A stretch of DNA of 64,000 nt from Patescibacteria group bacterium (GTDB taxonomy: Bacteria > Patescibacteriota > Minisyncoccia > Minisyncoccales > Staskawiczbacteraceae): NCBI GenBank assembly GCA_018829965.1, contig JAHJTG010000008.1, positions 9,314 through 73,313 of the forward strand, read 5' to 3'. Position numbers and translations under genes: made by a program. The notes below the pieces were generated by a model, which was not told the origin of the DNA, did no database searches, and was given only the letters and a program-made list of their open reading frames with translations. Shown piece after piece: positions 7,234-60,631 of this stretch (positions within the stretch are counted from its first letter, which is position 1; every line of letters begins with the position of its first letter).

Positions 7234-7386
7234 CCCAGTATATCAACATCCAGAGCCAAACAAGATATAATTACGTTTTCGGCTTGAATGGTGTTCAATA
7301 TTTAATAAATTGATATTCAGTAATACTAACTCTCGTAGTGAGTTTGGCATTTTATTACCGAAAACACTGGATGTTGTATTACTGGG
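7234..7386. mobile_element. Internally deleted derivative of the GIY-YIG cassette seen at 59.6 kb
   Basis: Both ends (cccagtatatcaacatccagagccaaac... and ...cactggatgttgtattactgggcat) match the ends of the 59636-59950 element. The ~95-nt interior is non-coding. Confidence 0.65.
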
Positions 7387-7388
7387 CA

Positions 7389-8501
7389 TCAGAGCCCTCT
7401 TTTGGCTTTTCTTAATTTTTCAAACAAACAAGTGAGCCAGTATTTTTTTGAAATAATATAGTCCTGCGTTTTAATAAGCTCCCGGCGATAACCGCCGAAT
7501 CCCATTTTGAATAAAGTTAAACCATCCCACGGGTGTTTTTTGTTTAAAATTTTAAATTTAGAATTTCGGATTTGTTTAGGATTTAGGATTTCGGATTTAG
7601 GATTTACATTTTTTGTGTCGACGAAAAATGGCGATATTCCCCAAAAATTATATATTTCGCATCCCATCTTCTTTGCTTCTTTTATCGCCTCCCAGTGCAA
7701 AAGATAATTGACTGGTATTTTTGAATATTTAGTTAAAGAACCGCTATGATGATAAAAAGCAATGTTTTGCCAAAAAACAAAAATAGCAACAGAGATAATC
7801 TCTCCTTTATACTTCCCGAAGAAAATCTGAATCTGGTTATCCTTATTAAACGCTGAAAATTGATTTTTTAAGTATTTGATTGGAAAAACCACGAATTTAT
7901 GGCGTTTTGCTGTTTCTAAATAAACTGGAATAAACTTATCTAAGTCATCTATATTATTGCTTTTTACAATCTGAATATCTGGATTCTTTTGCGCTTGACG
8001 GATTAAATAACGGGTTGTTTTTCGCATTCCAGCGAGAAGTTCTTCTTCGGTGATGCTAATATCTAATTCCCACGTTACTTCAGCATGCATATGAATCGGC
8101 GCTTGTCTGAAACCCAAGTCTTTAAATATTTTGATATTATTCTCATCTCTTTCCCAAAAAGGAGCAATTCTAATAAAGCTCGCTTTTTCTTCTTGCGCTA
8201 TTTCTTTAAGTTTAGTTAGTAAAATTTCTAATACCTTATTTTTGGAAATTGGAAATTGGAAATTGGAAATTATATTTGGTCCATGAGGAACAAATAAAAA
8301 CGTTCCTCGCCTCGCAGATACCTTAGCGACTAAAGCCACGCCGACTAAATTTTCGTCATCATAAACACCGAATCTCCAAATTTTGCTTTTTTGCAATATC
8401 TGAAACTCTCCCCAATCCCACGATTGGAGGAATGTCTTTTCTTTAATGCCTACAAAGAAATCCTCCCAAATCTTTTTTTCCTTAATTTCTTTTATTTCCA
8501 T
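7389..8501 (-). CDS. FemAB-family peptidoglycan bridge-formation (aminoacyl-tRNA-dependent) transferase
   Basis: Size and overall pattern of Fem/MurM-like proteins (..SWDWGEF.., ..TRY.IRQA.., ..YHHSGS..). Contains two heptamer arrays. Confidence 0.7.
   Translation of the reverse strand: MEIKEIKEKKIWEDFFVGIKEKTFLQSWDWGEFQILQKSKIWRFGVYDDENLVGVALVAKVSARRGTFLFVPHGPNIISNFQFPISKNKVLEILLTKLKEIAQEEKASFIRIAPFWERDENNIKIFKDLGFRQAPIHMHAEVTWELDISITEEELLAGMRKTTRYLIRQAQKNPDIQIVKSNNIDDLDKFIPVYLETAKRHKFVVFPIKYLKNQFSAFNKDNQIQIFFGKYKGEIISVAIFVFWQNIAFYHHSGSLTKYSKIPVNYLLHWEAIKEAKKMGCEIYNFWGISPFFVDTKNVNPKSEILNPKQIRNSKFKILNKKHPWDGLTLFKMGFGGYRRELIKTQDYIISKKYWLTCLFEKLRKAKRGL
7548..7617. repeat. Heptamer array (TTAGGAT/TTCGGAT units), family C, inside the FemAB-like CDS
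   Basis: tttagaatttcggatttgtttaggatttaggatttcggatttaggattt; translated as NPKSEILNPKQIRNSKFKILN. Confidence 0.75.
8244..8271. repeat. (GGAAATT)x4 perfect tandem heptamer inside the FemAB-like CDS
   Basis: ggaaattggaaattggaaattggaaatt. Confidence 0.9.
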
Positions 8502-20129: not shown

Positions 20130-20194
20130 AAACTAAGTTTTCGTTTAATTATTTTACCCTGTTAGAGGTTTTATGTAAACAAAAAGAGCGCTAT

Positions 20195-21461: not shown

Positions 21462-21523
21462 ACTAGGGTCAGAGCCTCTCAAAACTCTACGATCGCGGTA
21501 GATAAGGACCAACCTGTCTCACG

Positions 21524-22214: not shown

Positions 22215-22307
22215 ACGGTTTGAACCCAGCTCACGTAACACTTTAATTGGCGAACAGCCAAACCCTTGGGAGCGGCTTCACCCCCAGGATGTGTTGAGCC
22301 GACATCG

Positions 22308-23209: not shown

Positions 23210-23320
23210 CACTCCGCTCCTTACTTCGTAAGAGCTTCGAAGGGGCAGGTATTCTTTTTTTCAGAATACTTGTCCTGCGTAGCTTTTTTTACGAAACAAA
23301 AAGCGAAGTAGGACCCTCAA
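23210..23320 (-). repeat. 23S hairpin insertion 1 (domain IV, ~E. coli 1860 region)
   Basis: ~110 extra nt relative to E. coli, with nested hairpins (caggtattc-ttttttt-cagaatacttg). Confidence 0.6.
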
Positions 23321-23427
23321 CTTTAACATTCCAGCACTGGTCAGGCTTCACCCCCTATACATCCTCTTACGAGTTAGCAGAGAGCTGTGTTTTTGATAAA
23401 CAGTCGCTAGAGATACGTTAGCTGCGT

Positions 23428-23572
23428 CCCACCGCACCTCGCTATGCTCGGTACTACCGCGGATTAACACGGATTTTAACTGATTAACACGGATAAAATA
23501 TCCGTATGAATCCAGTCGTATCCGCATGTATCCGTGGTACCAAACGCAGTGAGGTACGGTAGGAAGGCCATA
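23428..23572 (-). repeat. 23S hairpin insertion 2 (variable helix ~E. coli 1730)
   Basis: Outer arms cctcgctatgctcgg / ccaaacgcagtgagg enclose CGGAT-rich modules (family I, also at 38245-38300). Confidence 0.7.
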
Positions 23573-24712
23573 TTGCGAACTTACGGCCGCTTTTTTGCCG
23601 AGTTCCTTAACGAGGAATCACCCGTTCATCTTGGCACACTTACGCCGACCCACCTGTGTCGGTTTACGGTACGGTTCCCATTTTTTTAACCCTACGAGCT
23701 TTTCTAGACAACGCGCTCATCCGAATCGCCAGTGCCGAAGCACCAACTTTTCTCATTCCTTAGATTACTCCTAAGAACAAGAACATAAATCCAATAATTT
23801 GCTCGGACTACTGTGTTGTGTCACTCTTCAGAAAAAAATGGAAGGGACGGAATATTAACCGTCTAACCATTAGGTACGCCTTTCGGCTTCCCCTTAGGAC
23901 CGCCTAACCCTTGGCTGATTGCCATTGCCAAGGAACCCTTGGGTTTTCGATGTCCCGGTATTTCACCGAGATTGCGGTTACTCATGCCAACATTCTCTCT
24001 TCTTAACGCTCCACCAGACCTCACAGTCTAGCTTCGCAGCGATAAGAATGCTCTCCTACCACGCATAAAAACCTGAGTTTCTATGCATCCATATCTTCGG
24101 TATTAAGCTTTAGTCCCGATGAATCTTCGGCGCACTTTGCCTATATAGGACAGTGAGTTGTTACACACTCTTTAAAAGATAGCTACCTCTAAGCTAACTT
24201 CCTGCCTGTAAAGGGCAAAATACTTCCTTAATCTACACTTAGCTTAATTTTGGGACCTTAGATGATGATCTGGACTGTTCTCCTTACGACCATGGAGCTT
24301 AGCCCCCACAGTCTAACTGCCTTTTTGACGATGCTGGTATTCGGAGTTTAATTAGAATATCTGAGCGAAGCCCAAGAAATTCTATTTAGTGCTCTACCCC
24401 CAGCACCTAAACAAAAGACGCTAGCCCTAAAGCTATGTCGGAGAGAACCAGCTATTACCAAGCTCGATTAGCTTATCACTTCTTACCACAGGTCATCCCA
24501 GAGTATTGCACGGCTCAAGGGTTCGGACCTCCCCCGCTCTTTCGAGAGGGTTCATCCTGCCCATGGCAAGCTCGCCTGGCTTCGGGTCTCAACCACTCAG
24601 CTTAATTGTTTGCGCTATTAACGCTCGCTTTCGCTATGCCTCCACCCCGTAAGGGTTTAGACTAGCTGAGTAACTGAACTCGTTGGCTCGTTCTGCAAAA
24701 AGCACGCCATCA

Positions 24713-24898
24713 CCAGCCACATCTCGCTGCGCTCGATGTGTCTGGAAACCCTAAATCCTAAATCCGAAATCCTAAACAATAACTAAAATCCAAAATCAAA
24801 AACTTATTTTAAATTTGAAATTTAGAATTTGGAATTTGTTTAGAGTTTCGTGTTTAGTGCTTAGAATTTCCGCATCGAACAAAGTGAGATGCGGCCAG
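24713..24898 (-). repeat. 23S hairpin insertion 3 (helix 25 region, ~E. coli 540)
   Basis: Outer arms catctcgctgcgctcgatg / catcgaacaaagtgagatg enclose inverted heptamer arrays of family C. Confidence 0.7.
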
Positions 24899-25286
24899 CT
24901 CTGACTCGTTGTAAGCAAATGGTTTCAGGTTCTATTTCATCGGGGTCGCCCCCCTACTTTTCACCTTTCCCTCACGGTACTGGTTCACTATCGGTAATAT
25001 TGAGTATTTAGCCTTGGCCGTATAGTTCGGCCTGATTCCTGCCAGGTTATCATTCCCGACAGTACTTAAGTAAAATAGCAAGGAGCGTAAAGTCGTTTTC
25101 GTCTACAGGACTATTACCTTCTATGGTCACCCTTTCCAGGGTTATTTGACTAACGAAAAATTTATTCTTGCAGAGCAAAAATAAATTTACACTTTACCAA
25201 AATGTTCTCCCTCGGATAGAATCCAGCACTCTTTAACGTTTCAAAAAGTACTGGATGCTCCCGACGCTAAATCCTTGCAACCCCAA

Positions 25287-25425
25287 TCGCTCGCGCCTCG
25301 CTATGCTCGTCGCTTCGCTCTCCTACCAATTACGAATTTTTTCGAATTACGAATATTCGTAATTAGTTTAAATTGGTAATTCGTAGGAAGAGTAAGTGCC
25401 GAACGCAGTAAGGCACGAACGAATG
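25287..25425 (-). repeat. 23S hairpin insertion 4 (domain I, ~E. coli 270 region)
   Basis: Outer arms gcctcgctatgctcg / cgaacgcagtaaggc enclose ACGAAT modules of family B. Confidence 0.7.
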
Positions 25426-25471
25426 GTTTGGGCTCTTCCCTTTTCGCTCGCCACTACTAAGGGAATAACTG

Positions 25472-25747
25472 GTCCTACATCTCACAAATTCCGCTAAATT
25501 TAGAAACGAAATAATGCGCTAAATTCAAGACGCGATGACGAAACGCATAAGTGAAACGATGCGTTGAGGAAGAGCCTCGCAGAAGTTAGCCATTATTTCG
25601 CTTCCCTTTCGGGCGGGCGAATTCTGGACATATTCTTTGTTGCTCGTCGCTCACGTATCGCGTTGCTTATACGCTGTCGCTCCTCGCGTCGCGAATCTGT
25701 CGCAGAATTCGCTTCGCTAAATTAGTGCAATTTGTGAGATGCAGGAC
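25472..25747 (-). repeat. 23S insertion 5: 276-nt element with 19-bp terminal inverted repeats (domain I, ~E. coli 215)
   Basis: gtcctacatctcacaaatt ... aatttgtgagatgcaggac (18/19 complementary), with an internal gcgaattctg/cagaattcgc hairpin. No ORF and no group I core. Confidence 0.75.
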
Positions 25748-26333
25748 ATTTGTTCTCTTTTCCTCTGGGTACTGTGATGTTTCGCTTCCCCAGGTCTACC
25801 CCTAACCTTGCGGTCAGGTAATCCCGTTCTGCGGGATTGGGTTGCCCCATTCAGAAACCTCCGGATCAAAGGTTGCTAGCCACCTCCCCGAAGCTTATCG
25901 CAGGCACGCCACGTCTTTCATCGCCTCAATATTCCAAGGCATCCACCATTTGCCTATAAAATTATTTTCTTTGCGTAAGTTTATTCAACAATATAAATAC
26001 TGCTGAATGAATAGATACAGATTTTAGATATCTATTACTATTATATTTTTAGATGATTCTTTACTCTGTTAAAAAAAGACCCCTGTCTAAAGTTTAACAG
26101 AGTGGCCTAATTATATCTTTTTAAAAAAAGCAAGATTATAATTAGGGTTGTATTTTCAAAGTTCTTGATAAATATACTATTCTTAAAAAATTAAAAACCG
26201 CCTAGTTAAAGCGGTCCATCAGACATATACCCGCCTGCATCGCCTGTGGCGAAAGCCACTGCGGGCAGGCAAAAACTCGGAGTTTAACCGCTTCTTTTTC
26301 TAAAAATGGTTTTAATATTTATCATGTAAGGTT

Positions 26334-26362
26334 ATATTATTCTATAAATAAAAACGTGTCAA
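26334..26362 (-). promoter_or_regulatory. Candidate sigma70-type promoter for the 23S-5S unit
   Basis: Minus strand reads TTGACA-17 nt-TAATAT, ~360 nt upstream of the 23S 5' end and upstream of the processing stem. Confidence 0.45.
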
Positions 26363-26499
26363 GCCTTTCACCCTTTAAAAGAAGGTGTAGGGCACAGACC
26401 ATTGTCCTCCTGACGCGAAACTGGATCAATAATTTATGATATTATATACAAAATCTGTCACACAATATTGGGAGACCCGACCTCCCAATTAAATTAATT

Positions 26500-26533
26500 G
26501 AAAACAAAGCCCGGTCGCCTTAGGCGACCGGGC
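26500..26533 (-). terminator. Rho-independent terminator after the 26560-27240 gene
   Basis: gcccggtcgcc-taa-ggcgaccgggc hairpin followed (minus strand) by uuuguuuu. Confidence 0.7.
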
Positions 26534-26559
26534 TAATGTTTTCAATACTGAAAATTTAT

Positions 26560-27240
26560 CTATTTAATCTTTCTCTTTAAGTTCTCAATTGCTTGAGCTG
26601 CAGCATCTTTTCCACCTAAACCGAAAGCCAACATAACCGAACCGGCAATAGCGGCAACAATACCATAAACTATACCCTTGTATAGAATCTGGACTAAATC
26701 TGATTTTGGTAATAATTGATCTAAGATCATGAATATTAAGAAAATCCAAATTGTCCATCTTACGATAGAGGCTGCTAAATGAGCGTAACCGATTTTCATT
26801 TTCTCAACTGTTGCTCTTACTAACTTTTCTACGATATCAGCAATAACTACACCGACTACAAAAATTAAAACAGCGATAATGATGTTTGGGATATAGTTTA
26901 AGATATCCCTTAGAAGTTCTCCAAATTTAGTTAAATTTAGAATATCAACTGTTAATAATAATGTGACGATTACAAATATCCATTTAACGATAGCTCCAAT
27001 AAAAGCAGACGGATCCACTTTTATATCAGCTTTCTCAATGGCTTTCTGCCAACCTTCTTTTTCAAAAAGACGGTTGAATTTTAGTCCCTTCAAAAGTTCG
27101 GTTATAAATCTGCCGATTCCGACAGAGATGATATAGCCGATAACGAAGACAATTATTGCTATTATAAGTTGAGGAAGAAACGAAACCAATTCTTTAAGAA
27201 ATGGTTGTATAATTGTTACGTACCATTCTGGTGTTACCAT
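26560..27240 (-). CDS. Polytopic membrane protein (repeated TM-helix type, possibly mechanosensitive-channel-associated)
   Basis: ~6 TM helices with internal repeats; no catalytic motif. Confidence 0.5.
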   Translation of the reverse strand: MVTPEWYVTIIQPFLKELVSFLPQLIIAIIVFVIGYIISVGIGRFITELLKGLKFNRLFEKEGWQKAIEKADIKVDPSAFIGAIVKWIFVIVTLLLTVDILNLTKFGELLRDILNYIPNIIIAVLIFVVGVVIADIVEKLVRATVEKMKIGYAHLAASIVRWTIWIFLIFMILDQLLPKSDLVQILYKGIVYGIVAAIAGSVMLAFGLGGKDAAAQAIENLKRKIK

Positions 27241-27411
27241 ATTTATTTTAGGTTTAATTATCGATTTATTAATAAATAATTCGACCTTTATAAATTAGGC
27301 TTCTTGTCTGCCTGCGGTAGATCTCCCAAAGGGAGACAACCAGCCTAATCGTTAAACATTATTTTATTATGTGCTTATCTGCCTAAGAATCAACCCCTTA
27401 TGTGGATAATT

Positions 27412-28500
27412 CTATCCATGCTTTATCTCAATCACATCTCCGTCTTGAATGATATATTCCTTTCCTTCTGTTCTTATTAATCCCCTCTCTCTTGCCTTAG
27501 AAAAACCGCCGGCTTCAATCAAATCTTTCCAATTAATAACCTCGGCTTTAACAAACGTCTTTTCAAAATCGCTATGGATTACTCCTCCTGCTTGCGGAGC
27601 CATCTCCCCTCTTTTTATTGTCCAAGCACGCGTCTCATCTGTCCCAGTTGTCAAAAAAGTAATTAGACTTAACAGCTCGTAAGATTTTTTAACTAAAATA
27701 TCTGTTTCTGACTCTGGAGGAAATCCCAAAGAGATTCTTTCTTCTTTTAAGAAACCTGCTGTTTCAAATTCTGAAGCGATGTCTACTATTAAATACGGCC
27801 AACTTGTCTCGCCAGAATTGGCTGGGTTATTCTTTTTAAAAACCTCTAAAGTATTTTGATCCACCTCCTCATCTTTTCCGTTTAAAAGATACAGCCTTGG
27901 TTTTAATGTTAATAATTGAAAACTATCCAAAATTTTCTTCTCTTCATCTGTAAAGCTTTGCTCAACTAATATTTTTTCTTCAGTTAAAAATTCTTTTGCT
28001 TTTTTTAATACTTCCATTTCCTTAATCGCCTCCTTCCTATTAGCCCTTACATCACCCTCCAAGCCATGTATTCTTTTCGTAATAGTATCTAAATCTTTTA
28101 AAATTAATTCTACGTCTAAGATCCCTTTATCTCTTAATGGACTTATTGATTCTTGCGTGTTAATAATATCGGAATTAGAAAAAGCGCGAAGGATATATAT
28201 GATTGCATCTGTTTCACGAATATTTGCTAAAAACTTGTTTCCCAAGCCTTCGCCTTCGCTCGCCCCTTTTACCAAGCCGGCGATATCAACAAACTCAATG
28301 GTTGTATAAATCTTCTTTGCAGAACTAGTTAATTCAGCTAATTTATCAACTCTTTCGTCTGGAACCAAAACAACCCCTACATTAGGGTCAATTGTACAAA
28401 AAGGATAATTAGCAATATCCACTTCCTTTTTGGTTAATGTTTTAAATAGAGTGGACTTACCTACATTCGGTAATCCTACAATGCCTATACTAAGTGCCAT
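27412..28500 (-). CDS. ychF: Ribosome-binding ATPase YchF
   Basis: G1 GLPNVGKST, NYPFCTIDPN, DIAGLV.GAS.G.GLGN.FL, C-terminal TGS-like domain. Confidence 0.95.
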   Translation of the reverse strand: MALSIGIVGLPNVGKSTLFKTLTKKEVDIANYPFCTIDPNVGVVLVPDERVDKLAELTSSAKKIYTTIEFVDIAGLVKGASEGEGLGNKFLANIRETDAIIYILRAFSNSDIINTQESISPLRDKGILDVELILKDLDTITKRIHGLEGDVRANRKEAIKEMEVLKKAKEFLTEEKILVEQSFTDEEKKILDSFQLLTLKPRLYLLNGKDEEVDQNTLEVFKKNNPANSGETSWPYLIVDIASEFETAGFLKEERISLGFPPESETDILVKKSYELLSLITFLTTGTDETRAWTIKRGEMAPQAGGVIHSDFEKTFVKAEVINWKDLIEAGGFSKARERGLIRTEGKEYIIQDGDVIEIKHG

Positions 28501-28529
28501 TTATAAATTTTTAAAATTATTTTTTTATA

Positions 28530-28883
28530 TTAAAACCTATAAATATTGCCCTCCGATGGAGTTTCAATATTAGTATTTGCTAAAACTTTTTTTATTCTCT
28601 CTGCTTCATTTTCAATTATTTCCCCGTCGTATTCTCCACTATGACTATGCGCTCCACTATTTTCATATGAAGCAAACTTCTGATCTAAATGAAGATTGAA
28701 GATAAACTCGTTATGGTCCTCATCTTTTTTTATAAACACATGGAATCTCGGGTAACCATATCCCCTGCTTAAATCCTTAACAAGGCTTTCTTCGCCGTTC
28801 TCGCTTTTTCTGCCAATCTTATATCCAATCTTCTTCGCCATATTTACAATAGTTTCGTTAGTGTTTTTAACTATAAATTTCAT
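28530..28883 (-). CDS. Hypothetical protein (117 aa; start moved to Met66 of the tracked ORF)
   Basis: The ORF-track N-terminus reads through tRNA-Ala and repeat DNA. MKFIVKN... begins 8 nt downstream of the tRNA. Confidence 0.5.
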   Translation of the reverse strand: MKFIVKNTNETIVNMAKKIGYKIGRKSENGEESLVKDLSRGYGYPRFHVFIKKDEDHNEFIFNLHLDQKFASYENSGAHSHSGEYDGEIIENEAERIKKVLANTNIETPSEGNIYRF

Positions 28884-28891
28884 ATTATTTA

Positions 28892-28962
28892 TGGACCCTG
28901 CGAGAATCGAACTCGCATCTCCTCGTTGCAAACGAGGTGTGCTACCACTATACCAAGGGCCC
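28892..28962 (-). tRNA. tRNA-Ala (anticodon UGC)
   Basis: Acceptor GGGCCCU/AGGGUCC with the G3:U70 identity pair; anticodon stem CCUCG/CGAGG with loop UUUGCAA; T arm GCGAG-UUCGAUU-CUCGC. Confidence 0.85.
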
Positions 28963-28965
28963 ACC

Positions 28966-29060
28966 AAAGCTATCGAGAATCTTCGATTTCTTTCAGAAAT
29001 CGGGACAAATGTCCCGATGGCTGTTGCCATCGCGGATGCTCGATTTTGCTCGGCAAAATC
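28966..29060. repeat. Family A module cluster (GTCCCGAT / TCGAGnATCnTCGA words)
   Basis: atcgagaatcttcgat, tttctttcagaaatcgggac, gtcccgatggctgttgccatcg, cgattttgctcggcaaaatcg: concatenated small hairpins. Confidence 0.75.
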
Positions 29061-29092
29061 GGCAAGGTGTTCTACCACTAAACTAAAGCCCC
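29061..29092 (-). pseudogene. Orphan tRNA 5' half (acceptor strand, U8, D arm, start of anticodon stem)
   Basis: GGGGCUU-UA-GUUU-AGUGGUA-GAAC-A-CCUUG then runs straight into family A repeats. No matching 3' half (CAAGG... AAGCCCC) before tRNA-Ala. Confidence 0.5.
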
Positions 29093-29093
29093 C

Positions 29094-29423
29094 CTAATTT
29101 ATCCCCCAGAATTTTATTATTTGGACATCATCTAACCCCCAAATTCTCATTAGAATAAAATCCTTGAAATCGCTTATAATTATACCCATACTCAAAAAAA
29201 TCAAAACGTATCCAACATATTTTCTGCTTTTTTTAAAAAACAAATAAGATAAACTGATAAATAACAATAACAACCCAAATATCCAATGATGCGGAATCCA
29301 TATTATCTGCCCCCCAATGATATGCCCTATTCTCCCGATAGCATATCCCATAAACACTGCGAAGGTATATATAAAATATTTTATAGACATTATTGCTCTT
29401 AATAATATCTTACCTTTTTCCAA
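29094..29423 (-). CDS. Small membrane protein
   Basis: Three predicted TM helices; 109 aa. Confidence 0.5.
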   Translation of the reverse strand: MEKGKILLRAIMSIKYFIYTFAVFMGYAIGRIGHIIGGQIIWIPHHWIFGLLLLFISLSYLFFKKSRKYVGYVLIFLSMGIIISDFKDFILMRIWGLDDVQIIKFWGIN

Positions 29424-29483
29424 TAGTTTTTCAAGCCAGCAGGCGCAGGATTGCCAAGCACTAATCTACGGATAGTGCTCGGC

Positions 29484-29512
29484 TAAAACAAAAAACCGCA
29501 TTTCACGGTTTT
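29484..29512 (-). terminator. Rho-independent terminator downstream of the 16S gene
   Basis: aaccg-ugaaau-gcgguu hairpin followed by uuuuuguuuu on the minus strand. Confidence 0.6.
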
Positions 29513-29698
29513 TTGTTTTAGTTTCTTAAAGCTGTTTCGAATATCCGATTTTGACGATTTCGTACAGTAGCAAGCTGTATGAAACATTACTTCGGTAAAC
29601 GTTTTAACTTGAAATCCAAATTTAAGACTTCAAATTAAGTCGACAAAAAAATATAAAAAAATTGATCCACGACCAGGTTCCCCTAGCCGTGCCTTGTT

Positions 29699-30477
29699 CA
29701 TGCTATTCCCCTATATCGCTATAAGGCATGGACTATATCATCATCCTTTCACAAAATATTTTTGACTTTACTGGATGGTAAGAATTTACAATTTTAGCAA
29801 ATCTCTCGTGATGTTTAGTAGAAACAAATATTCTCCAATAATCAGGGTCAACTTTTTTACTCGGATTATGGATTTTTCCAGTTTCTATCTTTAAACTTTT
29901 GAGAAGTAACTTTAATTGCTTGATTTTGCTTAAATCCTTTTGGACTAACTGAATATAAAATCTGTCTTTTGTATGAGGAACGCCACCTTCGGCGTCAAAA
30001 AATCCTTTTACATAAAACAATTTTTCATAATAGTTATCCAAATTTATAGGATTAAATTTGAAATCTAAGTCTTTACAAAGTGTCTCTAAAACATACATAT
30101 TTCTATCCTTTCCCTCTTTGTAAATCCATGATTTGCAATTAATTTTACCTAGCAAAATTTGTAAATTTTCCAACCACTGCTTATTTTTCTGGGAGAATCT
30201 AATTCTCTTTCCTTTGTTTAAAGAGGCATCATGAATCGCTCCATTTAAATAAGCTATAATCTCATATTTTGTGGTAGGAGTTCGGCGTGTAGTCTCTGAG
30301 GGGTCAATTCTAATTTTATTAGAACGACTTCCCTGCTGATTGTCTGCACTAGAAACATTTTCACTCATATTATCTTATTATAATATGAGTAGTCCTAGAT
30401 TCACAGATGTTCCAGCATACAGCCAACTTTTTCTCTAAGGGTTACCCCTATGAGGTCGCAACATGCAGATTGCACTG
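29699..30477 (-). mobile_element. Group I intron in 16S after U1498 (decoding centre, inside the 1492R primer site)
   Basis: Exons rejoin as GGGGCUAAGUCGU|AACAAGGCACGG. ACAAUCAGCAGGGAAG and CCCCUCAGAGACUAC lie 5' of most of the ORF; GAUAUAGUCC lies 3' of it. Confidence 0.85.
29733..30368 (-). CDS. LAGLIDADG homing endonuclease (double-motif)
   Basis: IIAYLNGAIHDAS and VKGFFDAEGGV motifs. The tracked N-terminus reads through intron core elements, so the true start is uncertain. Confidence 0.8.
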   Translation of the reverse strand: MSENVSSADNQQGSRSNKIRIDPSETTRRTPTTKYEIIAYLNGAIHDASLNKGKRIRFSQKNKQWLENLQILLGKINCKSWIYKEGKDRNMYVLETLCKDLDFKFNPINLDNYYEKLFYVKGFFDAEGGVPHTKDRFYIQLVQKDLSKIKQLKLLLKSLKIETGKIHNPSKKVDPDYWRIFVSTKHHERFAKIVNSYHPVKSKIFCERMMI

Positions 30478-30893
30478 ACGACTTAGCCCCTCTTATTAAG
30501 CCCAGCGTAGGATCCCGTAAACGGGACACTTCGGCTGTTCCTAACTCGCTTGGCTTGACGGGCGGTGAGTACAAGACTCAGGAACATATTCATCGCCGCA
30601 TAGCTGATCGGCGATTACTAGCGATTCCAACTTCATGAGGGCGGGTTTCAGCCCTCAATCCGAACTAAGACCGATTTTGGTGGGATTTGCTTCACCTTGC
30701 GGTTTTGCGTCCCATTGTCTCGGCCATTGTACCACGTGTGCGGCCCAAGTCATCAAAGGGCCATGCTGATTTGGCGTCATCCTCGCCTTCCTCCCAGTTG
30801 TCCCGGGCAGTCCCCTATGACATATAAAACATAGGGCAAGGGTTGCGCTCGTTACCCGAATTAACGGTACGTCTCAAGACACGAGCTGACGAC

Positions 30894-31713
30894 CATATTG
30901 ATCTATAATTTCTTATAGTATGGACTATACCATCTTCCATCCGCCTGAGGCGGATTAGGAGACCAGCGTTTAATGATAGGTTATATCATTAAGTTTTCTC
31001 GCCTTTAGAGAAAACTAAGTCTCTACGGGGTATAAAAACTAATTTTTGTAATTTTATCGAATAATTATAAATTTTTTCTAAAAATTCTCTTGCCTGGTAT
31101 CGCGAGATATAAAGGCAAAATGTCTTTGCTGTTTTGTAGTAATAAATTTTTGTATTACTAATTCCTATCCTTAAAAGAAGACTTTTATCAATTTCTGCTT
31201 CATTTTTATTTCCATATACTATCCTGCAATCATTTCTAAAGTTCTTATCGATTGAACCGTCTCCATCAAACCTTCCTGCAAAATATGCATTAATTAAATT
31301 ATCTTTTTCTAATTTAATTAAATTATTTCGTGCCTCTCTAAATTCTCTCAGGAATGGACGGCTATTAACAAAAATATGATTTCTATTAAATTTTATCCTA
31401 TCTTCAGAAAAAAACTTCAATAGAAAATCTTTAAACTTGGCTATCAAAGCAGGGTCTACATTACTTAGACCAATCGAACTTGACCACCAATAACTATCTG
31501 CACACCAAAGTCCTAAGATATAAGAATCTTCTTCTCTAGAGAAAAAATTACAAAAATTAGTTTTTATACTTCCCACGGTATTGCCATTAATTATTATATT
31601 TTAACATAATAATTAGAAGGTTTCACCGTTATGAGCTGGTTTTTTACCGTATTAAAATAAATTAGTACGGGGCATTTCACTAAAAATTACTTTTTAGTGG
31701 GTCGTTATAACAC
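30894..31713 (-). mobile_element. Group I intron in 16S helix 34 (after ~U1060)
   Basis: Exons rejoin as GGUGCUGCAUGGUU|GUCGUCAGCUCGUG. Core elements AAUACCGUGGGAAG, CCCCGUAGAGACUUAG, GGUAUAGUCC. Confidence 0.85.
30989..31576 (-). CDS. LAGLIDADG homing endonuclease (double-motif); GTG start
   Basis: YILGLWCADSYWW and AYFAGRFDGDGSI motifs; 195 aa. Confidence 0.85.
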   Translation of the reverse strand: MGSIKTNFCNFFSREEDSYILGLWCADSYWWSSSIGLSNVDPALIAKFKDFLLKFFSEDRIKFNRNHIFVNSRPFLREFREARNNLIKLEKDNLINAYFAGRFDGDGSIDKNFRNDCRIVYGNKNEAEIDKSLLLRIGISNTKIYYYKTAKTFCLYISRYQAREFLEKIYNYSIKLQKLVFIPRRDLVFSKGEKT

Positions 31714-31981
31714 AACCATGCAGCACCTGTTCTGCTGCCTTGTGGGGGGCCATCCTTTCAGACGGCTTTCAACAGAATTTCTAGACTTGGTAAGGTTCTT
31801 CGTTTGTTGTCGAATTAAGCCACATGGTCCACCGCTTGTGTGAGTCCCCGTCTATTTCTTTGAGTTTTAGCCTTGCGGCCGTACTTCCCAGGCGGATCAC
31901 TTAACGCATTAGCTTCGCCACTGACAGGGTCGACACTGCCAATAGCCAGTGATCATCGTTTACAGCGTGGACTACAAGGGT

Positions 31982-32961
31982 CATCTTGTAGTTTTTTCTT
32001 ATTTCTTCGATTACTCGAAGGATCGGACTATATCATTTTCTGAAGTTTTTCCATTTGTTTTTCTTTTCAGTAATATATTTTTCTACTACTGCTTTAGAAA
32101 AACCTGTCAATTCACTAACTTCAGAAATCCAGCGTTGTTGTAAATCATGGTCTTTGTAAATAATCAAGACCTTCGGTAGCATTTCTGCCACTTTTATATG
32201 CGGCATTATAATCCGCAAAAACTTCTTTAACTCTTCGCTTGAGCGAATCCATAAACGATAATATATTCTTTCTTCATTCATCCATTTTCTAGTTATTTTA
32301 CCAATATGAACATTTATGTCCCATACTTTTTTTAAGTAATTAGACAATAATTTTTGCTCTTCATAAGAAAAACAATCTGTACAAAATACTCCCTTCCTTC
32401 CATTACCTATTATAGATCCATCATCAAGCCACCATATCGCTAAAGATAAAGGAGTTATTGCATTAAGCCACTTACGGCTAATTTTAAATACTCCTTTTTT
32501 ATGAGTTAAATCATATAACTCTGTTAATTCTGGTATTGCTACGCTTTGATATCGCAATTTTTGACCGCCAAATCCATCTTTTATTTCTGATTTCCAAAAA
32601 TAGTTTTCCCCGGAAATTTCCTTTAATTCATTTACTTTCCAGAAAAAATATTCCTTTTGCTTGATAGAATGACGGAAAGAAAAACGAGCATTTTTATAAT
32701 TATCGTTAATCTTCAGCGATCCATCGCCTAGCAAAGAACCAAGAATAATATCTTTGCAATTTTTAGACAAAAATGAATTTTTCATTTTCTATCTTTTTGA
32801 CTTACATAGTCTCTACGGGGTCGCTATCTTAAAAAGACGCGACTTCCCTCGGGATTATCCATCCGACTAAAATGGGTTTCCCCGATACAGCTAGATGCTC
32901 ACCATATTGTCACCAATATGGAGGACACCATTTAGTCTGTTAATTTCACAGACAAGGATTT
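31982..32961 (-). mobile_element. Group I intron in the 16S 790 loop (after U793, inside the 806R primer site)
   Basis: Exons rejoin as GGAUUAGAU|ACCCUUGUAGUCCACGC. AAUCCCGAGGGAAG and CCCCGUAGAGACUAUG precede the ORF; GAUAUAGUCC follows it. Confidence 0.85.
32033..32785 (-). CDS. LAGLIDADG homing endonuclease (double-motif, with C-terminal helical extension)
   Basis: IILGSLLGDGSL and LAIWWLDDGSI motifs; 250 aa. Confidence 0.9.
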   Translation of the reverse strand: MKNSFLSKNCKDIILGSLLGDGSLKINDNYKNARFSFRHSIKQKEYFFWKVNELKEISGENYFWKSEIKDGFGGQKLRYQSVAIPELTELYDLTHKKGVFKISRKWLNAITPLSLAIWWLDDGSIIGNGRKGVFCTDCFSYEEQKLLSNYLKKVWDINVHIGKITRKWMNEERIYYRLWIRSSEELKKFLRIIMPHIKVAEMLPKVLIIYKDHDLQQRWISEVSELTGFSKAVVEKYITEKKNKWKNFRK

Positions 32962-33239
32962 ATCTAATCCTTTTTGATCCCCACGCTTTCATTCCTCAGT
33001 GTCAGAATCGTCCCAGCTAACTGCCTTCGCTTTTGGTGTTCCCGACGATATCAACGGATTTCACCCCTACACCGTCGGTTCCGTTAGCCTCTAACGTCCT
33101 CTAGTCAAATAGTATCTTTAGCAATTCAAAGGTTAAGCCGATGAGTTTTAACTAAAGACTTATTTAACCACCTACGAATCCTTTATGCCCAGTAAATCCG
33201 GGTAACGCTCGGGGGTTCTGTATTACCGCTCCTGCTGGC

Positions 33240-34072
33240 CGAATAACGAAAAATTATTCGTTTTGGACTATATCATCACCTCGCTTCAGCGAGGGTTCGG
33301 CGTCTGATGATGGGTTCAAATACCACCATCTCATCCACTTAAGGATTCAGTCTCTGAGGGGTTAAAGCACAATAAGGTAATCTTTTTGAAAAACACGAAA
33401 TAATATTCGGAGAGATCAAATTTAAAAATTTATCTCTTCCTTTTGCCCCGATATATATTTCAGGATATCTTTTGCCTCTGCAAAGAGGCGTATGAATATT
33501 GGATTCTATTCCGAAGTTTTTCTTTAAAACCTCAACCAATAATTTATTCTCTTCGACGCTAAATGCATTTGTGCAAAAAGAAAAATTATAATGGTCTTTC
33601 GGTCTGAAATCTAAACTTCCATCGTCCATATACCATACAGCTAAACTTAATGGAGAAATTAATAACTCCTGAATGTTTTTTGGAACAATTTTCTTTCCAT
33701 TTTTATAAAATATTTCTTTGTATCTAGAGATATCTTCTAAAAATTTCGTTTGAAAATACCATTGCTTATTATCTTTCCTCTGTTTTGGCGAACTTTTGCA
33801 TAAATTTTCAAAGCAAGAATATAACCAGAATACATATTCTTTATGTGCTTCTGATTGTTTTATTCTCAAGCATTTTCCATCTATCCAAGCATCGCCCAAA
33901 AGAGTGCCGATAATAATTTCGTGTTGTTTCTTTGTCATTACCTAATTATACTCAACTTCCCTGCTGATTGTCACATTAAAATTATCAACTTTGTGATAAA
34001 GGAGCATTAATGTGCTTTCCAGCATATAAGCCGAATTTTGATTCTGCGCCCGCCAACCTTCATGGGTTGGCC
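33240..34072 (-). mobile_element. Group I intron in the 16S 530 loop (after U516, inside the 515F primer site)
   Basis: Exons rejoin as CCUAAUUCUGU|GCCAGCAGGAGCGGUAAUAC. Core elements ACAAUCAGCAGGGAAG, CCCCUCAGAGACUGAAUCC, GAUAUAGUCC. Confidence 0.85.
33339..33938 (-). CDS. LAGLIDADG homing endonuclease (double-motif)
   Basis: IIIGTLLGDAWI and LAVWYMDDGSL motifs; 199 aa. Confidence 0.9.
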   Translation of the reverse strand: MTKKQHEIIIGTLLGDAWIDGKCLRIKQSEAHKEYVFWLYSCFENLCKSSPKQRKDNKQWYFQTKFLEDISRYKEIFYKNGKKIVPKNIQELLISPLSLAVWYMDDGSLDFRPKDHYNFSFCTNAFSVEENKLLVEVLKKNFGIESNIHTPLCRGKRYPEIYIGAKGRDKFLNLISPNIISCFSKRLPYCALTPQRLNP

Positions 34073-34371
34073 ACAGAATTAGGACCCCCTTATTCCTTCG
34101 GTACTGTCAGTCGCCAAAGGCGACTTCCTCCCGAAGAAAAGAACTTTACACTCCGAAGAGTTTCTTCATTCACGTAACGTCGCTCCATCAGGCTTTCGCC
34201 CATTGTGGAAGATTCTCGACTGCAGCCTCCCGTAGGAGTATGGCCCGTGTCGCAGTGCCATTGTTGGGGAACACGCTCTCACGCCCCCTACCCGTCATAG
34301 TCTTGGTAGGCCGTTACCCTGCCAACTAACTGATAGGCCGCAGGCCCATCTCAAAGTGGATTGCTCCTTTA

Positions 34372-34498
34372 CTCCTCCTTCGCTCTTCATTCCATTCAGA
34401 GCTACGACGGACGAGCCTTGCTTTACGCTTGCAAAGTATAAATACCTTGCGGCTTTGTCCATCTGAAGCTTTTTATGAAATAAAAAGCGAAAGAGGAG
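34372..34498 (-). repeat. 16S hairpin insertion (~E. coli 190-220 region)
   Basis: ~125 extra nt bounded by ctcctccttcgc / gcgaaagaggag inverted arms; no ORF. Confidence 0.65.
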
Positions 34499-34952
34499 AC
34501 TATCGGAAATTAGCCAATCTTTCGACTGGTTATGTCCGTCTTTGAGGTTGGTACCTACGTGTTACTAACCCGTTCGCCACTGACCCTTGCGGGTCCGTTT
34601 GACTTGCATGCCTTATCCACGTTACCAGCGTTCACCCTGAGCTAGAATCAAACTCTCAAAAAATTGAAGTTTGATTTAAAAGAAAATAAATTCTCTTTTG
34701 AATCTAGTTACAATGTGATAGCTTTATTCGAAACAACTTTAAAAAACTAATTATTTATCCAGTTTAAATAGGTTATTTTAAACTGGGGTGCATTATTAAT
34801 TTATCAATGTACGGGGTATTTGTTTTGAAAAACAAATCCCGAAGATATCCATCTTTACTTAAAGATAAATATCTTCGGGGTTCATTCAACCATTTTAAAT
34901 TTTAATTCTCCATCAATTTATATTTTTTATTTATTTTTTATATGCAATTACT

Positions 34953-39814: not shown

Positions 39815-40194
39815 TTGTACTATCTATTATCTCTTTTTTTTTGTAAAAAAACCAGCCCTATGTCGCCTCCTCCTCCGCATAAAGCTACGGAGGACAAAGT
39901 AAGGCGATTGGGCTGGCACAAGAATTTCTATTTTGTAGCTTTCTTTTGTTCTACTGGCTTTGCCTCGCCGGTTTGTCCCGCCGAAGCCTTGGCAGAGGCG
40001 GAAGCTTTAGCGGAGGCGGGTTTCTCTTCATCAATCTCTTCTTCTTTAATTTTTCCCAGTAGTAGGTCGCCTGAAGCGACCACTACGGGACTAACCCCGT
40101 ACCAGAATAAGCACGGCACGGGACTCTGTCCAGTAGAATAATTTTGGCTTATTTATAAAAAGATTTTTCGGAGAAAAATACTGCCAAAATTATT
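39815..40194. repeat. Repeat-saturated 380-nt spacer downstream of rplY
   Basis: Nested hairpins ccagccc...gggctgg; GC-rich gccgaagccttggcagaggcggaagctttagcggaggcggg; an 18-bp perfect inverted repeat cagtagaataattttggc/gccaaaattattctactg. Confidence 0.7.
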
Positions 40195-40884
40195 CTACTG
40201 GGCTTTTCTTTCTGTTGGCTTAATTTCCGGTTCTTTATCGTCCACCACCTCTTCCTCTTTTTTCTCCTTTACTACCTTTTCTACATCTTCCACTTTTTCT
40301 TCAATCGGTTCTTCTAATTCCTCTTCAATCTTAGTTTGAGGAATAACCTTAGCAACAATTTCATCTAATCCTTTCAAAACCTTAACATCAGAAGAAAATT
40401 TTAAATCTTTAACAAAAATTTCATCTTCAAAAGTATTTAAAACACTAATATCAATCTTAACATCGTGAGGTAGGTTTTGAGGAAGAGCTTTCACTTTAAT
40501 TTCCTGAATTTCTTTAACTAGTGTCCCTCCTAAGTCTTTAACGGCAAGAGAAATACCTTCAAAAATTATAGGAATTGCAACTTCTACTTCTTGTTTCATT
40601 GAAGCTTGATAAAAATCAATATGTATAAATTTATCAGTGACATAGTCATGTTGAATTTCGTGAATTAAAACTGGCCTTTCTTTACTATCCCCTTCTATCT
40701 TTAAAGAAACCAAAGAACTTTCTCCAGTTTGAGAAAATATTTTTCTAAATTCTTCGTAATCTACTTCTATTGAAACACTTTTAACACCAGGGCCATAAAC
40801 TACTGCTGGAATTTTTCCTTGTTTCTTAATAGATTTAGTTTTCTTGCCAATCTCTTTTCTAATTTTTGCGTTTAAAGTAAGCAT
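40195..40884 (-). CDS. rplY: 50S ribosomal protein L25 (Ctc form)
   Basis: R...GK...K.....G.IPAV.YG N-terminus, two-domain length, acidic C-terminal tail. Confidence 0.9.
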   Translation of the reverse strand: MLTLNAKIRKEIGKKTKSIKKQGKIPAVVYGPGVKSVSIEVDYEEFRKIFSQTGESSLVSLKIEGDSKERPVLIHEIQHDYVTDKFIHIDFYQASMKQEVEVAIPIIFEGISLAVKDLGGTLVKEIQEIKVKALPQNLPHDVKIDISVLNTFEDEIFVKDLKFSSDVKVLKGLDEIVAKVIPQTKIEEELEEPIEEKVEDVEKVVKEKKEEEVVDDKEPEIKPTERKAQ

Positions 40885-59067: not shown

Positions 59068-59634
59068 TTATTTATTATTCTTAAACATCGGACCGTGGCC
59101 TGGAATTATCCAATCGGCTATCTCTAAAATCTTTTTACGGCTCTCTTCTAATCTTTGTGGATCATCAGCATAAGAATCTTTTTCAGGAAGATTTTCTTTC
59201 CAGAAAACATCTCCGCAAATAGCAACCAAGCCTTTATTTGTTTTTACTAATAAGCTTAAAGATGTTTTGTCGTGCCCCGGAGTTTCAATAATTCTGATGT
59301 TTTCTGTGAATTGTTCTTCCCTATCCTCAATTGTGTTTTTATCCCAAATCCCAAAATACTCTAAAGTTTTAGCCTTCGGAAACATTCCGATATTTCTGTA
59401 ATGGTCTAGATGAGAATGAGTTATAAAAACAAAGTTTACATCATTAACCGTCAAACCTTCTTTTTTCAGCTCTTTAATTAATATTTTTTGGTCTTCTAAA
59501 ATTCCTGGGTCCACAACCATTACAATATCTTTATCGCGCACTAAACTAATTGTAGCACAAGTTTTTTCTTCGCCATTATTATTAATTGAATCTGCAGTTG
59601 TATAACCTTCAGCTAAAATTTTAACTTCTGCCAT
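59068..59634 (-). CDS. MBL-fold metallo-hydrolase
   Basis: THSHLDH metal motif. Start set at MAEVKI, because upstream codons lie in the GIY-YIG element terminus. Confidence 0.8.
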   Translation of the reverse strand: MAEVKILAEGYTTADSINNNGEEKTCATISLVRDKDIVMVVDPGILEDQKILIKELKKEGLTVNDVNFVFITHSHLDHYRNIGMFPKAKTLEYFGIWDKNTIEDREEQFTENIRIIETPGHDKTSLSLLVKTNKGLVAICGDVFWKENLPEKDSYADDPQRLEESRKKILEIADWIIPGHGPMFKNNK

Positions 59635-59644
59635 ACCCAATATA

Positions 59645-59950
59645 TCAACTTCCAGAGCCAAACGTTGTTTTATGACGCTTGTATTCTTGAAGTCTTAAAC
59701 CTAAAAATCTCCGACCTTGAGTAGTTTTTAAATAATTTTCTCTACGTTTGGCATCTTCCATATTCTTACATCCTTCAAAATAAATAAGTTGAATGGGTAA
59801 TTTTATCTTTGTAGAAAAAGATAATCATTTATTATGTTCTTCTAATCTTCTCCTAAGGTTGTTGGTATATCCGATATATCTATCACCATCTTTTTGACTT
59901 TCCAAAACATAGATATAGAAGAACGTACTGGAAGTTGTATTACTGGGCAT
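59645..59950 (-). pseudogene. GIY-YIG nuclease gene (URI/YhbQ-like, 101 codons) with an in-frame TGA at codon 42
   Basis: FFYIYVLES..DGDRYIGYTNNLRRRLEEHNK-TGA-LSFSTKIKLPIQLIYFEGCKNMEDAKRRENYLKT..GRR. The TGA (59825-59827) sits where the family has Gly (HN.G). Confidence 0.75.
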
Positions 59951-60518
59951 ATTATTTTGACTTTTTACCGCTTACATTACTGTGTTCTAGCCGAGTTGCG
60001 TTGCCCCAAAACCGATTTACTGTTTTCGGTTTAGGAGCTTTCCGGTTCTTTTTATTTTTTTGATTTAATTTTGAAAAATTATTTTTCATATATTTATTAT
60101 TACTTCATTGTACACTCAAGAACACCTGTTGCAAGAGAACACAATTAAAAACACAACCTACTTAAATAGATAGTGGATAACTTTATATTGACCGTCTTTC
60201 TATAATTATCTATAATTAAAGCGTAACAAAGACTCTTCTTTGTTATCCGCAACAAATAGCTCTTTGAAATCGTACAATTATGATTTCTAAATAACACCTA
60301 CTCAATAATAAATTTATGTAACACACGCAGGGCAAATTCACTGCCTTATACTTGGACAATTTTGTCTATTAACATAAATAAAAAAAAGGCGTTGTGAATC
60401 ACACCGAATCACTAAACCACAAAAACAACCCGCAATAAAAATCTTCTAAAAAGTACCAACAAAAAAATCTCCTAAAAAAACCAAAGCCCTAATAACGTAA
60501 ATGTTATATTGAAATCAT

Positions 60519-60557
60519 AAAAAAAATAAAGCCTCTGGAAAACCTCCGAGGCTTTTT
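60519..60557. terminator. Terminator after galU (bidirectional hairpin)
   Basis: aaaaaaaauaaa-gccucugg-aaaacc-uccgaggc-uuuuu. Confidence 0.7.
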
Positions 60558-60631
60558 CATTTACCTAAAATTAAAAAGGCGGCCATGCCACCCATTTTAA
60601 CAAAAAGTTAAAAAATGATTAATAAAAATAA

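Follow-up and report, generated by a model that had tools for sequence, protein, structure and literature searches.

A putative 312-bp mobile element of Patescibacteria with a GIY-YIG nuclease as its only gene, found as a disabled copy at a start codon

Introduction

The closest known system to the locus described here is the Ssn/NTS module, built on a GIY-YIG nuclease that acts on single-stranded DNA (ssDNA). Each enzyme of the Ssn family consists of a single GIY-YIG domain and cleaves ssDNA beside a hairpin repeat (NTS/SRM); such repeats flank the ssn genes and also occur at other places throughout the genome, two half-site oligonucleotides can together provide the hairpin, and the NTS-ssnA-NTS architecture has been likened by its authors to an insertion sequence (Chenal et al. 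2025, Nat Commun, PMC11893778). In the present work we analysed a stretch of 64,000 nucleotides from a Patescibacteria group bacterium (GenBank assembly GCA_018829965.1, contig JAHJTG010000008.1, positions 9,314 to 73,313), referred to as the window and numbered from its first letter. Its minus strand very probably holds, at 59636-59947, a 312-bp mobile element from a family of elements that is widespread among Patescibacteria, which has a GIY-YIG nuclease as its sole gene, inserted at the TATG of a metallo-beta-lactamase (MBL)-fold gene and is now dead through a nonsense mutation at Gly-42.

The genomes of Patescibacteria, or candidate phyla radiation (CPR) bacteria, are tiny and densely packed, with few recognised transposons. 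Non-intron insertions that carry GIY-YIG open reading frames (ORFs) have been described from the rRNA genes of CPR bacteria (Tsurumaki et al. 2024, PMC11270868), and a GIY-YIG protein is among the genes horizontally transferred from Patescibacteria (PMC12455944).

Architecture and insertion site of the window copy

The window has a G+C content of 35%, and its relatives are Patescibacteria. The nuclease gene (59645..59950, minus strand), assigned from Pfam family PF01541, its homologues and its dN/dS ratio, has 101 codons followed by a terminal TGA and is disrupted at codon 42. The minus-strand translation of window 59600-59962 contains MPSNTTSSTFFYIYVLESQKDGDRYIGYTNNLRRRLEEHNK*LSFSTKIKLPIQLIYFEGCKNMEDAKRRENYLKTTQGRRFLGLRLQEYKRHKTTFGSGS*, that is, 101 sense codons and one internal stop, and so bears out an earlier reading of this DNA, made from the sequence alone and here called the sequence-only reading, which had described a 101-codon GIY-YIG frame broken only by a TGA at 59825-59827. 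With glycine restored at codon 42, the protein matches PF01541 over residues 11-80 with 62.3 bits, against a cut-off of 22.6.

The gene lies between two terminal arms on the same strand, found by inverted-repeat search and by their covariation with each other. The 5' arm, CCCAGTA-ATA-CAACTTCCAG (59928..59947), encodes a disordered N-terminal peptide, PSNTTSS, while the 3' arm, CTGGAAGTTG-ATA-TATTGGG (59636..59655), holds the terminal TGA of the ORF (59647-59645). Of the 20 positions in the termini 59947-59928 (CCCAGTAATACAACTTCCAG) and 59655-59636 (CTGGAAGTTGATATATTGGG), 16 are complementary, in agreement with the imperfect inverted termini of about 20 bp noted earlier, and an inverted-repeat tool extends the match to 23 nt at 78%. 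The arms pair through 7 bp, a 3x3 ATA/ATA internal loop and a further 10 bp, giving a helix of 17 bp. The 3' arm carries a G.T mismatch to the 5' arm that is specific to the window copy (TATTGGG as against the consensus TACTGGG).

Directly outside the arms stand two copies of TATG, read as a target-site duplication. The 5' copy (59948..59951, minus strand) was assigned from the sequence and from the single TATG present at the empty orthologous sites L120 and L089 (L numbers designate individual loci); the 3' copy (59632..59635, minus strand) was assigned from the starts of the orthologues of the host gene and from a gap-free empty-site alignment. That host gene, recognised by Pfam PF00753 and by element-free orthologues, encodes an MBL-fold hydrolase of 188 aa (59068..59634, minus strand), with the element at its start codon. 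A metagenome scan with the MBL-fold protein gave 80 orthologous loci with 65-74% identity, 78 of which begin with ATG GCA GAA GT (MAEVKIL) behind ordinary upstream sequence and contain no element. These 78 starts place the true start of the window gene at the ATG at 59634 (59634-59632), not at the TTG at 59661, from which gene callers start it within the 3' arm of the element, 27 nt upstream of the true ATG, to give a protein of 197 aa. An exact look-up of the 188-aa protein returned no match because the gene had been called from the upstream TTG; the 197-aa version matched. Once 59947-59636 and one TATG are deleted, no gap is needed over the junction in the alignment of the window to L120, L089 and L121 (junction: window GTAAGCGGTAAAAAGTCAAAATAATATG|GCAGAAGTT; L089 GTAAGCGGGAAGAGATCAAAATAATTATGGCAGAAGC). 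The ATG at 59950-59948, formerly the start codon of the host gene, is now that of the GIY-YIG ORF.

Upstream of the element, a basic ORF of 45 codons (MKNNFSKLNQKNKKNRKAPKPKTVNRFWGNATRLEHSNVSGKKSK; 59952-60089, minus strand) ends 1 nt before it. Because both the sequence and the position of this ORF are conserved upstream of the MBL orthologues at L120, L089 and L121, it is probably a real small gene, which, until the element inserted, would have been coupled in translation to the MBL gene. Beyond it, some 540 nt (60090-60631) extend to a UDP-glucose pyrophosphorylase-like gene without an ORF of at least 60 aa, which is unusual for a compact genome; Rfam gave nothing credible on 60090-60631.

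Distribution of the family and signs of mobility

Homologues of the nuclease are numerous, with 704 at E <= 1e-5 in the protein database. A scan of the protein family against one GTDB genome per species found 537 relatives, and the best 80 loci were fetched. The covariation and codon counts use 68 aligned DNA copies, and the counts of flanks and start codons use 63 full elements. The best 80 of the 537 loci belong to lineages of the Parcubacteria type (Nealson-, Portnoy-, Doudna-, Yanofsky-, Azam-, Niyogi-, Kerfeld- and Magasanikbacteria) and to Microgenomates (Roizman- and Levybacteria), and some carry the labels Saccharibacteria, Gammaproteobacteria, Bathyarchaeia or Methylomirabilis. Almost every locus has the arrangement ATG|CCCAGTA-ATA-CAACTTCCAG ... 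CTGGAAGTTG-ATA-TACTGGG|(T)ATG.

The direct repeats that flank the full elements vary from site to site: TATG in 41 of 63, ATG in 9, ATGA in 4, TGTG, TGGA, TGAA, TGC and TGCAA once each, and CTTG for nested copies. We read these repeats of 3-5 bp as target-site duplications. In 62 of the 63 full copies, an ORF of 60 aa or more in the same orientation starts within 2 nt after the element, and the proteins encoded downstream are mutually unrelated, with five non-trivial homologous pairs among 2415; to judge by their sequences, a methyltransferase, a thymidylate kinase, a glycosyltransferase and a P-type ATPase are among them. When the duplication is displaced by one or two bases (ATGA, TGAA, TGGA, TGC), the terminal G/A of the arm and the duplicated TG together rebuild an in-frame GTG or ATG for the host gene. 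The bias towards start codons may reflect targeting, or else the survival of those insertions that are harmless and expressed.

Identical or near-identical copies occur at different sites of one metagenome-assembled genome (MAG) in the pairs L045/L048, L037/L040 and L059/L061. Tandem elements share one TATG at L025 (3003-3625) and L068 (about 2990-3300), which suggests that the element's own start codon can itself be a target. In all of the roughly 70 full copies, which represent many lineages, the gene is accompanied by the arms and is the only ORF that they enclose. The family therefore has terminal inverted repeats (TIRs), site-variable duplications, empty sites and copies at unrelated sites, as expected of a transposable element; a recognised transposase (DDE, HUH, serine or tyrosine) was not found in the element, whose sole ORF is the GIY-YIG gene, without any other Pfam or NCBIfam match. 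The sequence-only reading had spoken of a cassette bounded by inverted termini, which was right but understated, the locus having the marks of a discrete mobile element with a target-site duplication, empty sites and miniature derivatives.

The insertion sites also bear on the idea of a free-standing homing endonuclease of the GIY-YIG type, whose gene would be copied by repair into the specific empty allele that the enzyme had cut. The fold is the classical one of homing endonucleases, and the seg genes of phage T4 sit between host genes in a similar way. The 101-aa protein, however, is a catalytic domain only, with no DNA-binding domain, the insertions lie in unrelated genes that share a target of about 4 bp, and there are both target duplications and gene-less derivatives with the same ends, so that we consider homing extremely unlikely.

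Gene-less derivatives and related hairpins

A tblastn search for further GIY-YIG copies in the window gave none, save a 10-residue N-terminal match, which exposed a miniature element. The same region emerged from blastn of the cassette against the window, in which the termini alone recur, in the same orientation, at 7234-7261 and 7366-7389, where shuffled sequences predict no matches. Together with an arm search, this defined a derivative of 153 nt (7234..7386, minus strand) that has the same arms, resembles a miniature inverted-repeat transposable element (MITE) and is predicted to be non-autonomous. The termini reported by the sequence-only reading were thus real, but their second copy at 7234-7389 and the contact of the element with the host start codon had been overlooked.

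The derivative has its 5' arm at 7386-7367 (CCCAGTAATACAACATCCAG) and its 3' arm at 7253-7234 (CTGGATGTTGATATACTGGG), and lies between the stop of a FemAB-like ORF and the ATG (7233) of an FtsQ/POTRA-like gene, flanked by ATG/GATG duplicated at 7389-7387 and 7233-7231. Compared with the full window copy it shows a compensatory double change (caacAtccag/ctggaTgttg as against caacTtccag/ctggaAgttg). Its DNA fold has -28 kcal/mol (z = -6.1), with the arm stem in the minimum-free-energy structure. On translation, a 48-codon frame (MPSNTTSSVFGNK...ILFGSGC*; 7243..7389, minus strand) is open through the derivative and ends at the TGA of the arm, 9 nt before the host ATG.

Counting that in the window, gene-less derivatives of 62-218 nt with the same arms and duplications were found at L012, L044, L059 and L065. 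Others are nested in reverse inside three GIY-YIG genes, at L041 (1965-2027, 62 nt), L064 (1646-1720, 74 nt) and L072 (3235-3381, 146 nt), all at one shared site, a CAAG that is single in intact genes. At L041 and L064 the insert and its duplication add up to a multiple of three without a stop codon, and the nuclease frame stays open.

A further hairpin of 74 nt, with the variant arms CCCAGTAGAATAATTTTGGC / GCCAAAATTATTCTACTGGA, was found by arm and hairpin search at 40129..40202 on the minus strand. It overlaps the TAG stop of an L25/Ctc-like ORF (40195..40884), with no clear target duplication visible, and its arms resemble in type those around the divergent GIY-YIG copies L069, L071 and L076; it is possibly a relative in the same superfamily. 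More small hairpins lie at 40060-40128. At L144 (1281-1395), a perfect hairpin of 114 nt (CCCCGTAAGAAAGCGGAGGG ... CCCTCCGCTTTCTTACGGGG) stands upstream of an MBL orthologue; its CCCNGTA/TACNGGG ends, on arms that are otherwise different, hint at a wider hairpin superfamily.

Covariation of the paired termini

Across the 68-sequence alignment, the 17 proposed pairs between the arms are 97% paired. Both sides have changed in 13 of the 17 pairs and 107 cells are compensatory, values reached by none of 500 shuffles, while sliding the partner arm by 1-3 columns lowers the pairing to 20-45%. Compensatory changes are seen in the outer stem (CCCAG/CTGGG as against CCCCG/CGGGG and CCCGG/CCGGG) and in the inner stem (TTCCAG/CTGGAA as against TTCCCG/CGGGAA and TTATAG/CTATAA); ACACCCAG/CTGGGTGT is a further example. 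The mismatches among the 1156 cells comprise 10 of the G.T and 10 of the A.C type, and these equal counts, from a small sample, argue against a purely RNA-level constraint.

The possibility that the terminal helix is mainly an RNA structure in the host mRNA has to be weighed at this point. Such a helix would bring the ribosome-binding site to the duplicated ATG and may also throttle translation of the nuclease, the covariation being held by selection for expression of the host gene; this would be compatible with mobility. Hairpin-bridged pairs of Shine-Dalgarno sequence and AUG are known from phage T4 genes 25 and 38. For the element, the minimum-free-energy fold of the complete sequence as RNA includes the terminal stem (z = -3.7), and TATG/TATG can add two Watson-Crick and two G.U pairs. 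Start codons are also occupied by derivatives in which the upstream frame stops well short of the host ATG, and the dead window copy still precedes an intact host gene. We nevertheless think this explanation rather unlikely, although a possible one. The mismatches show no excess of the G.U type (10, against 10 of the A.C type, in a small sample), unlike typical selected RNA helices; the arms are kept in the reverse-nested derivatives inside a gene, where there is no ribosome-binding site to bridge; and Rfam, searched at the gathering score and at E <= 1, gave nothing on either the full element or the miniature.

A 16-mer from the 3' arm had 76 exact matches in viral contigs, which we ascribe to chance because none of them is accompanied by the partner 5' arm.

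Nature of the in-frame TGA

The premature TGA (59825..59827, minus strand), defined by translation, alignment and an independent assembly, occupies codon 42, which encodes glycine in at least 90% of 25 homologues; the sequence-only reading was therefore correct in placing it at a conserved glycine. A Logan assembly of run SRR6514730, which is independent, is identical over 3.1 kb, TGA included, and this rules out a sequencing or assembly error as the source of the stop.

Two origins had been put forward for the TGA, and the first of them, a single GGA-to-TGA nonsense mutation, is the one that the family upholds. Codon 42 is GGN (GGT, GGC, GGA or GGG) in 63 of the 68 aligned DNA copies and TGA in the window copy only; the window itself offers no second GIY-YIG copy for this comparison, which had been proposed within the genome; L004, for example, reads GGA TTA TCT where the window has TGA TTA TCT. 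The nearest homologues, which are 75-85% identical over their full length (101-102 residues), come from Parcubacteria/Patescibacteria MAGs with code 11 and have GGN at codon 42, and the best of them share an odd N-terminus, MPSNTTSS, and C-terminus, FGSGS. Further signs of decay in the window copy are the G.T mismatch in its arm, the loss of an internal start at Met/Val-9, a codon that is ATG or GTG in most copies and ACG here, and the conservative changes F49I, R50K and F53I at nearly invariant positions. Sister copies carry nonsense codons elsewhere (L042 TAA, L057 TAA, L032 TAG, L054 TGA), and the occurrence of all three kinds of stop at unrelated codons is a pattern of random decay. The TGA is thus best read as a plain G-to-T nonsense mutation (GGA to TGA) of Gly-42 in a decaying copy, not as recoding.

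The second origin, a cassette recently received from a Gracilibacteria or Absconditabacteria donor using translation table 25, whose UGA would be a glycine codon stranded in a code-11 host, is exceedingly improbable. It does account for the TGA falling exactly on the conserved glycine and for an ORF that is unbroken under table 25. However, table 25 would equally read through the conserved terminal TGA: in 57 of the 68 copies the ORF's own stop is a TGA inside the conserved 3' arm (AGT TGA TAT ACT GGG), which means that the family is built for a code with TGA as a stop and is incompatible with an origin under UGA=Gly. The close relatives are all code-11 Patescibacteria with GGN, only one TGA in 101 codons distinguishes the gene from a code-11 copy (L004 has GGA), and the nonsense codons of the sister copies are of other kinds as well. 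Relatives in Gracilibacteria or Absconditabacteria, a search for which had been recommended, are absent from the best 80 of the 537 loci. The gene was accordingly rejected as a code-25 gene, having a single TGA, a family stop of TGA in 57 of 68 copies and relatives with GGN. As regards the host, TGA terminates 7 of the 56 ORFs in the window that reach 100 aa, in line with the earlier statement that it serves as a stop codon; no further split gene in the window is rejoined when TGA is read as sense, and no other host gene there has an in-frame TGA, at a glycine or elsewhere.

It might also be supposed that the TGA is read through or recoded, by selenocysteine, programmed readthrough or a suppressor tRNA, so that the nuclease is still made. 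The frame past the TGA is intact with all family-invariant residues retained, and the mutation is present in two assemblies; but a recent mutation would equally leave the downstream frame intact, codon 42 is TGA in none of the 67 other copies, the window has no other in-frame TGA, and none of its three tRNAs could read UGA. We regard readthrough as very unlikely. An in-frame TGA at a glycine here means ordinary gene decay, with no sign of code-25 ancestry.

The nuclease

Over 77 core codons, and with dS close to saturation, intact copies have a dN/dS of about 0.12, which indicates strong purifying selection on the nuclease, the arms meanwhile being almost invariant. The invariant residues of the family are Y14, Y25, G27, R35, E38, E59 and E71 (GIY, YIG, Arg and Glu motifs). 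The AlphaFold model agrees with the beta-beta-alpha-alpha-beta-alpha fold of the superfamily and is a plain GIY-YIG domain (pLDDT 81) in which residues 1-7, encoded by the 5' arm, are disordered (pLDDT <50). The nearest solved structures are the UPF0213 protein BH0048 (1zg2, E = 5e-7) and Slx1 (4xm5/7cq2), and a search of the PDB gave generic GIY-YIG neighbours only. No NCBIfam family scored above its cut-off (TIGR01453, 20.5 bits against 56), and a plasmid collection yielded only distant GIY-YIG matches with 35-38% identity. In annotation pipelines, these genes go under the name 'excinuclease ABC subunit C', or the downstream gene is given a wrong start.

A different role for this protein would follow if the arms were ordinary TIRs and the element, itself non-autonomous, depended for its movement on a transposase gene at another place, the GIY-YIG gene being cargo or a domesticated Ssn-like nuclease with a host role such as the control of incoming ssDNA in natural transformation. 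TIRs with a duplication of 3-5 bp are the classical signature of DDE transposons, and GIY-YIG nucleases are without known strand-transfer chemistry; Neisseria SsnA, moreover, has a role in transformation at the level of the host (PMC11893778). Such a cargo gene would hardly be expected to travel with the arms in all of about 70 full copies with no other ORF, arms bound by a protein should be conserved and not covary, and the gene-less derivatives share arm idiosyncrasies with the full GIY-YIG copy of the same genome (CAACCCC at L012; CCCCG with GAAGATG at L044). We judge this alternative unlikely.

Discussion

Proposed mechanism

Sequence comparison shows that the element inserted into the start-codon TATG of the MBL-fold gene and duplicated the 4 bp. 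The upstream signals of the host and its ATG now stand before the nuclease ORF, so that the translation signals of the host gene, including in some loci a clear Shine-Dalgarno sequence (L015 aggagg, L014 gaggag), now drive the nuclease. The nuclease stop, TGA, lies 9-10 nt before the duplicated host ATG, at which the host ORF restarts. For mobility, the arms would pair in single-stranded or cruciform DNA, and the nuclease, by analogy with Ssn and Slx1, may recognise the stem of paired arms and cut at its base, with host repair or replication completing excision and insertion. The host gene would be kept expressed by termination-reinitiation, by a stem that bridges the ribosome-binding site to the downstream ATG, or by both.

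Several points weigh against this account. The 80 loci were picked by protein similarity, which favours intact copies. Covariation alone cannot separate a DNA hairpin from an RNA helix or from concerted evolution of the arms, and the 10:10 count of mismatches is small and phylogenetically non-independent. In four of five gene-less derivatives, 52-149 nt separate the end of the upstream frame from the host ATG, and in the dead window copy the frame stops at codon 42, about 190 nt before that ATG; since frames end so far upstream in most of the derivatives and in the dead copy, termination-reinitiation cannot be what keeps host genes expressed in general. The nucleases of the GIY-YIG type act by hydrolysis and have, to our knowledge, no strand-transfer activity. 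We therefore infer a role as 'transposase' for the GIY-YIG protein with some reserve, and a trans-acting factor is possible.

Relation to described systems

The likeness to the Ssn modules is considerable. Proteins on both sides have about 94-101 aa and a GIY-YIG domain only (the 101-aa nuclease, with no other domain, has the size of Ssn-type proteins), inverted hairpin-forming repeats surround the gene, and repeats without a gene occur elsewhere. Aligned over 65 columns to a Rhizobium homologue that lies between SRM repeats, the CPR family shows 40% identity (hhalign probability 96.6%), a degree similar to that of the UPF0213 match. In contrast to the Ssn modules, the CPR arms pair with each other across the gene instead of forming a hairpin per arm, and the CPR elements have target-site duplications, empty sites, nesting and a start-codon position, none of which is reported for Ssn (PMC11893778). 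The SRM motif HGTCWYN0-2YYVSBRHN0-5WNVSBRGN0-2RNCYNB was found 0 times in the window and four times in 429 kb of related loci, while the same script finds four at the Rhizobium control; the arms of the CPR elements represent another motif. This control was the textbook SRM-ssn-SRM locus L239 (Rhizobium sp. CIAT894 plasmid NZ_CP020952.1, 585819-587213), where a 94-aa GIY-YIG gene with four inverted CGTCATCCCAGGGCTTGACCCTGGGATCCAC copies lies beside an IS4 transposase. Our conclusion is that the element probably works like an Ssn/hairpin module and yet should not be filed as a member of Ssn.

UPF0213/YhbQ/YazA and Slx1 (URI-type) proteins give the best sequence and fold matches among solved structures, Slx1 being a structure-selective nuclease on branched DNA, but they are encoded by host genes that are present once and lack both terminal repeats and duplications, and the identity is about 25-37%. 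MITEs and palindromic elements (Neisseria Correia, Rickettsia palindromic, REP/BIME-RAYT and IS200/IS605 elements) are likewise short, with pairing ends, many copies and gene-less forms tolerated at gene boundaries or in frame, and IS200/IS605 and REP-RAYT also tie a small nuclease to DNA hairpins. The associated protein here, however, is a GIY-YIG nuclease and not a DDE or HUH/Y1 transposase, and, unlike IS200/IS605, the element has a target duplication and ends that pair mutually, with no subterminal hairpins.

The GIY-YIG ORFs of CPR rRNA genes come from the same bacterial group, although the paper concerned describes no arms, duplications or start-codon insertion (PMC11270868). The window itself contains a CPR-typical rRNA operon (20194-34663), with the 16S gene split into Rfam matches at 30456-31890 and 33974-34663 and ORF-bearing insertions between them, a 23S gene that spans 3.8 kb as against the 2.9-kb model, and a 5S gene at 20194-20303. 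A window-wide arm search found no GIY-YIG arms in the rRNA inserts, no search having been aimed at the inserts themselves.

Significance

A full-text literature search found no description of this element. The family appears to be undescribed, and akin to the Ssn-like GIY-YIG/hairpin modules and to MITE-like elements. We would go further only tentatively, and rate it as quite possible, if short of probable, that it represents an undescribed class of prokaryotic DNA transposon, the smallest known to carry a gene (312 bp), with a hairpin- or structure-specific GIY-YIG nuclease of Ssn/Slx1 type as its sole protein, mutually pairing ends and start-codon-specific landing, the ribosome being handed back through the duplicated ATG. 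The smallest classical insertion sequences are about 0.7 kb, and the gene-carrying 312-bp form is less than half of that.

The main interest of the locus lies beyond the question of the TGA, in the element family that the dead copy and its 153-nt sibling reveal. If our reading is true, the family would be direct genomic evidence of Ssn-like GIY-YIG/hairpin modules as mobile elements, and if the nuclease alone mobilises the hairpin, it would imply a new chemistry of transposition, together with a tool of very small size, directed at ssDNA or hairpins and possibly programmable. Of more general interest are an Ssn-like GIY-YIG family outside Neisseria, ends that pair intramolecularly and covary, and an insertion at the start codon that may keep the host gene translated. 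Although few transposons are recognised in the small, dense CPR genomes, this element is present in hundreds of species-level genomes.

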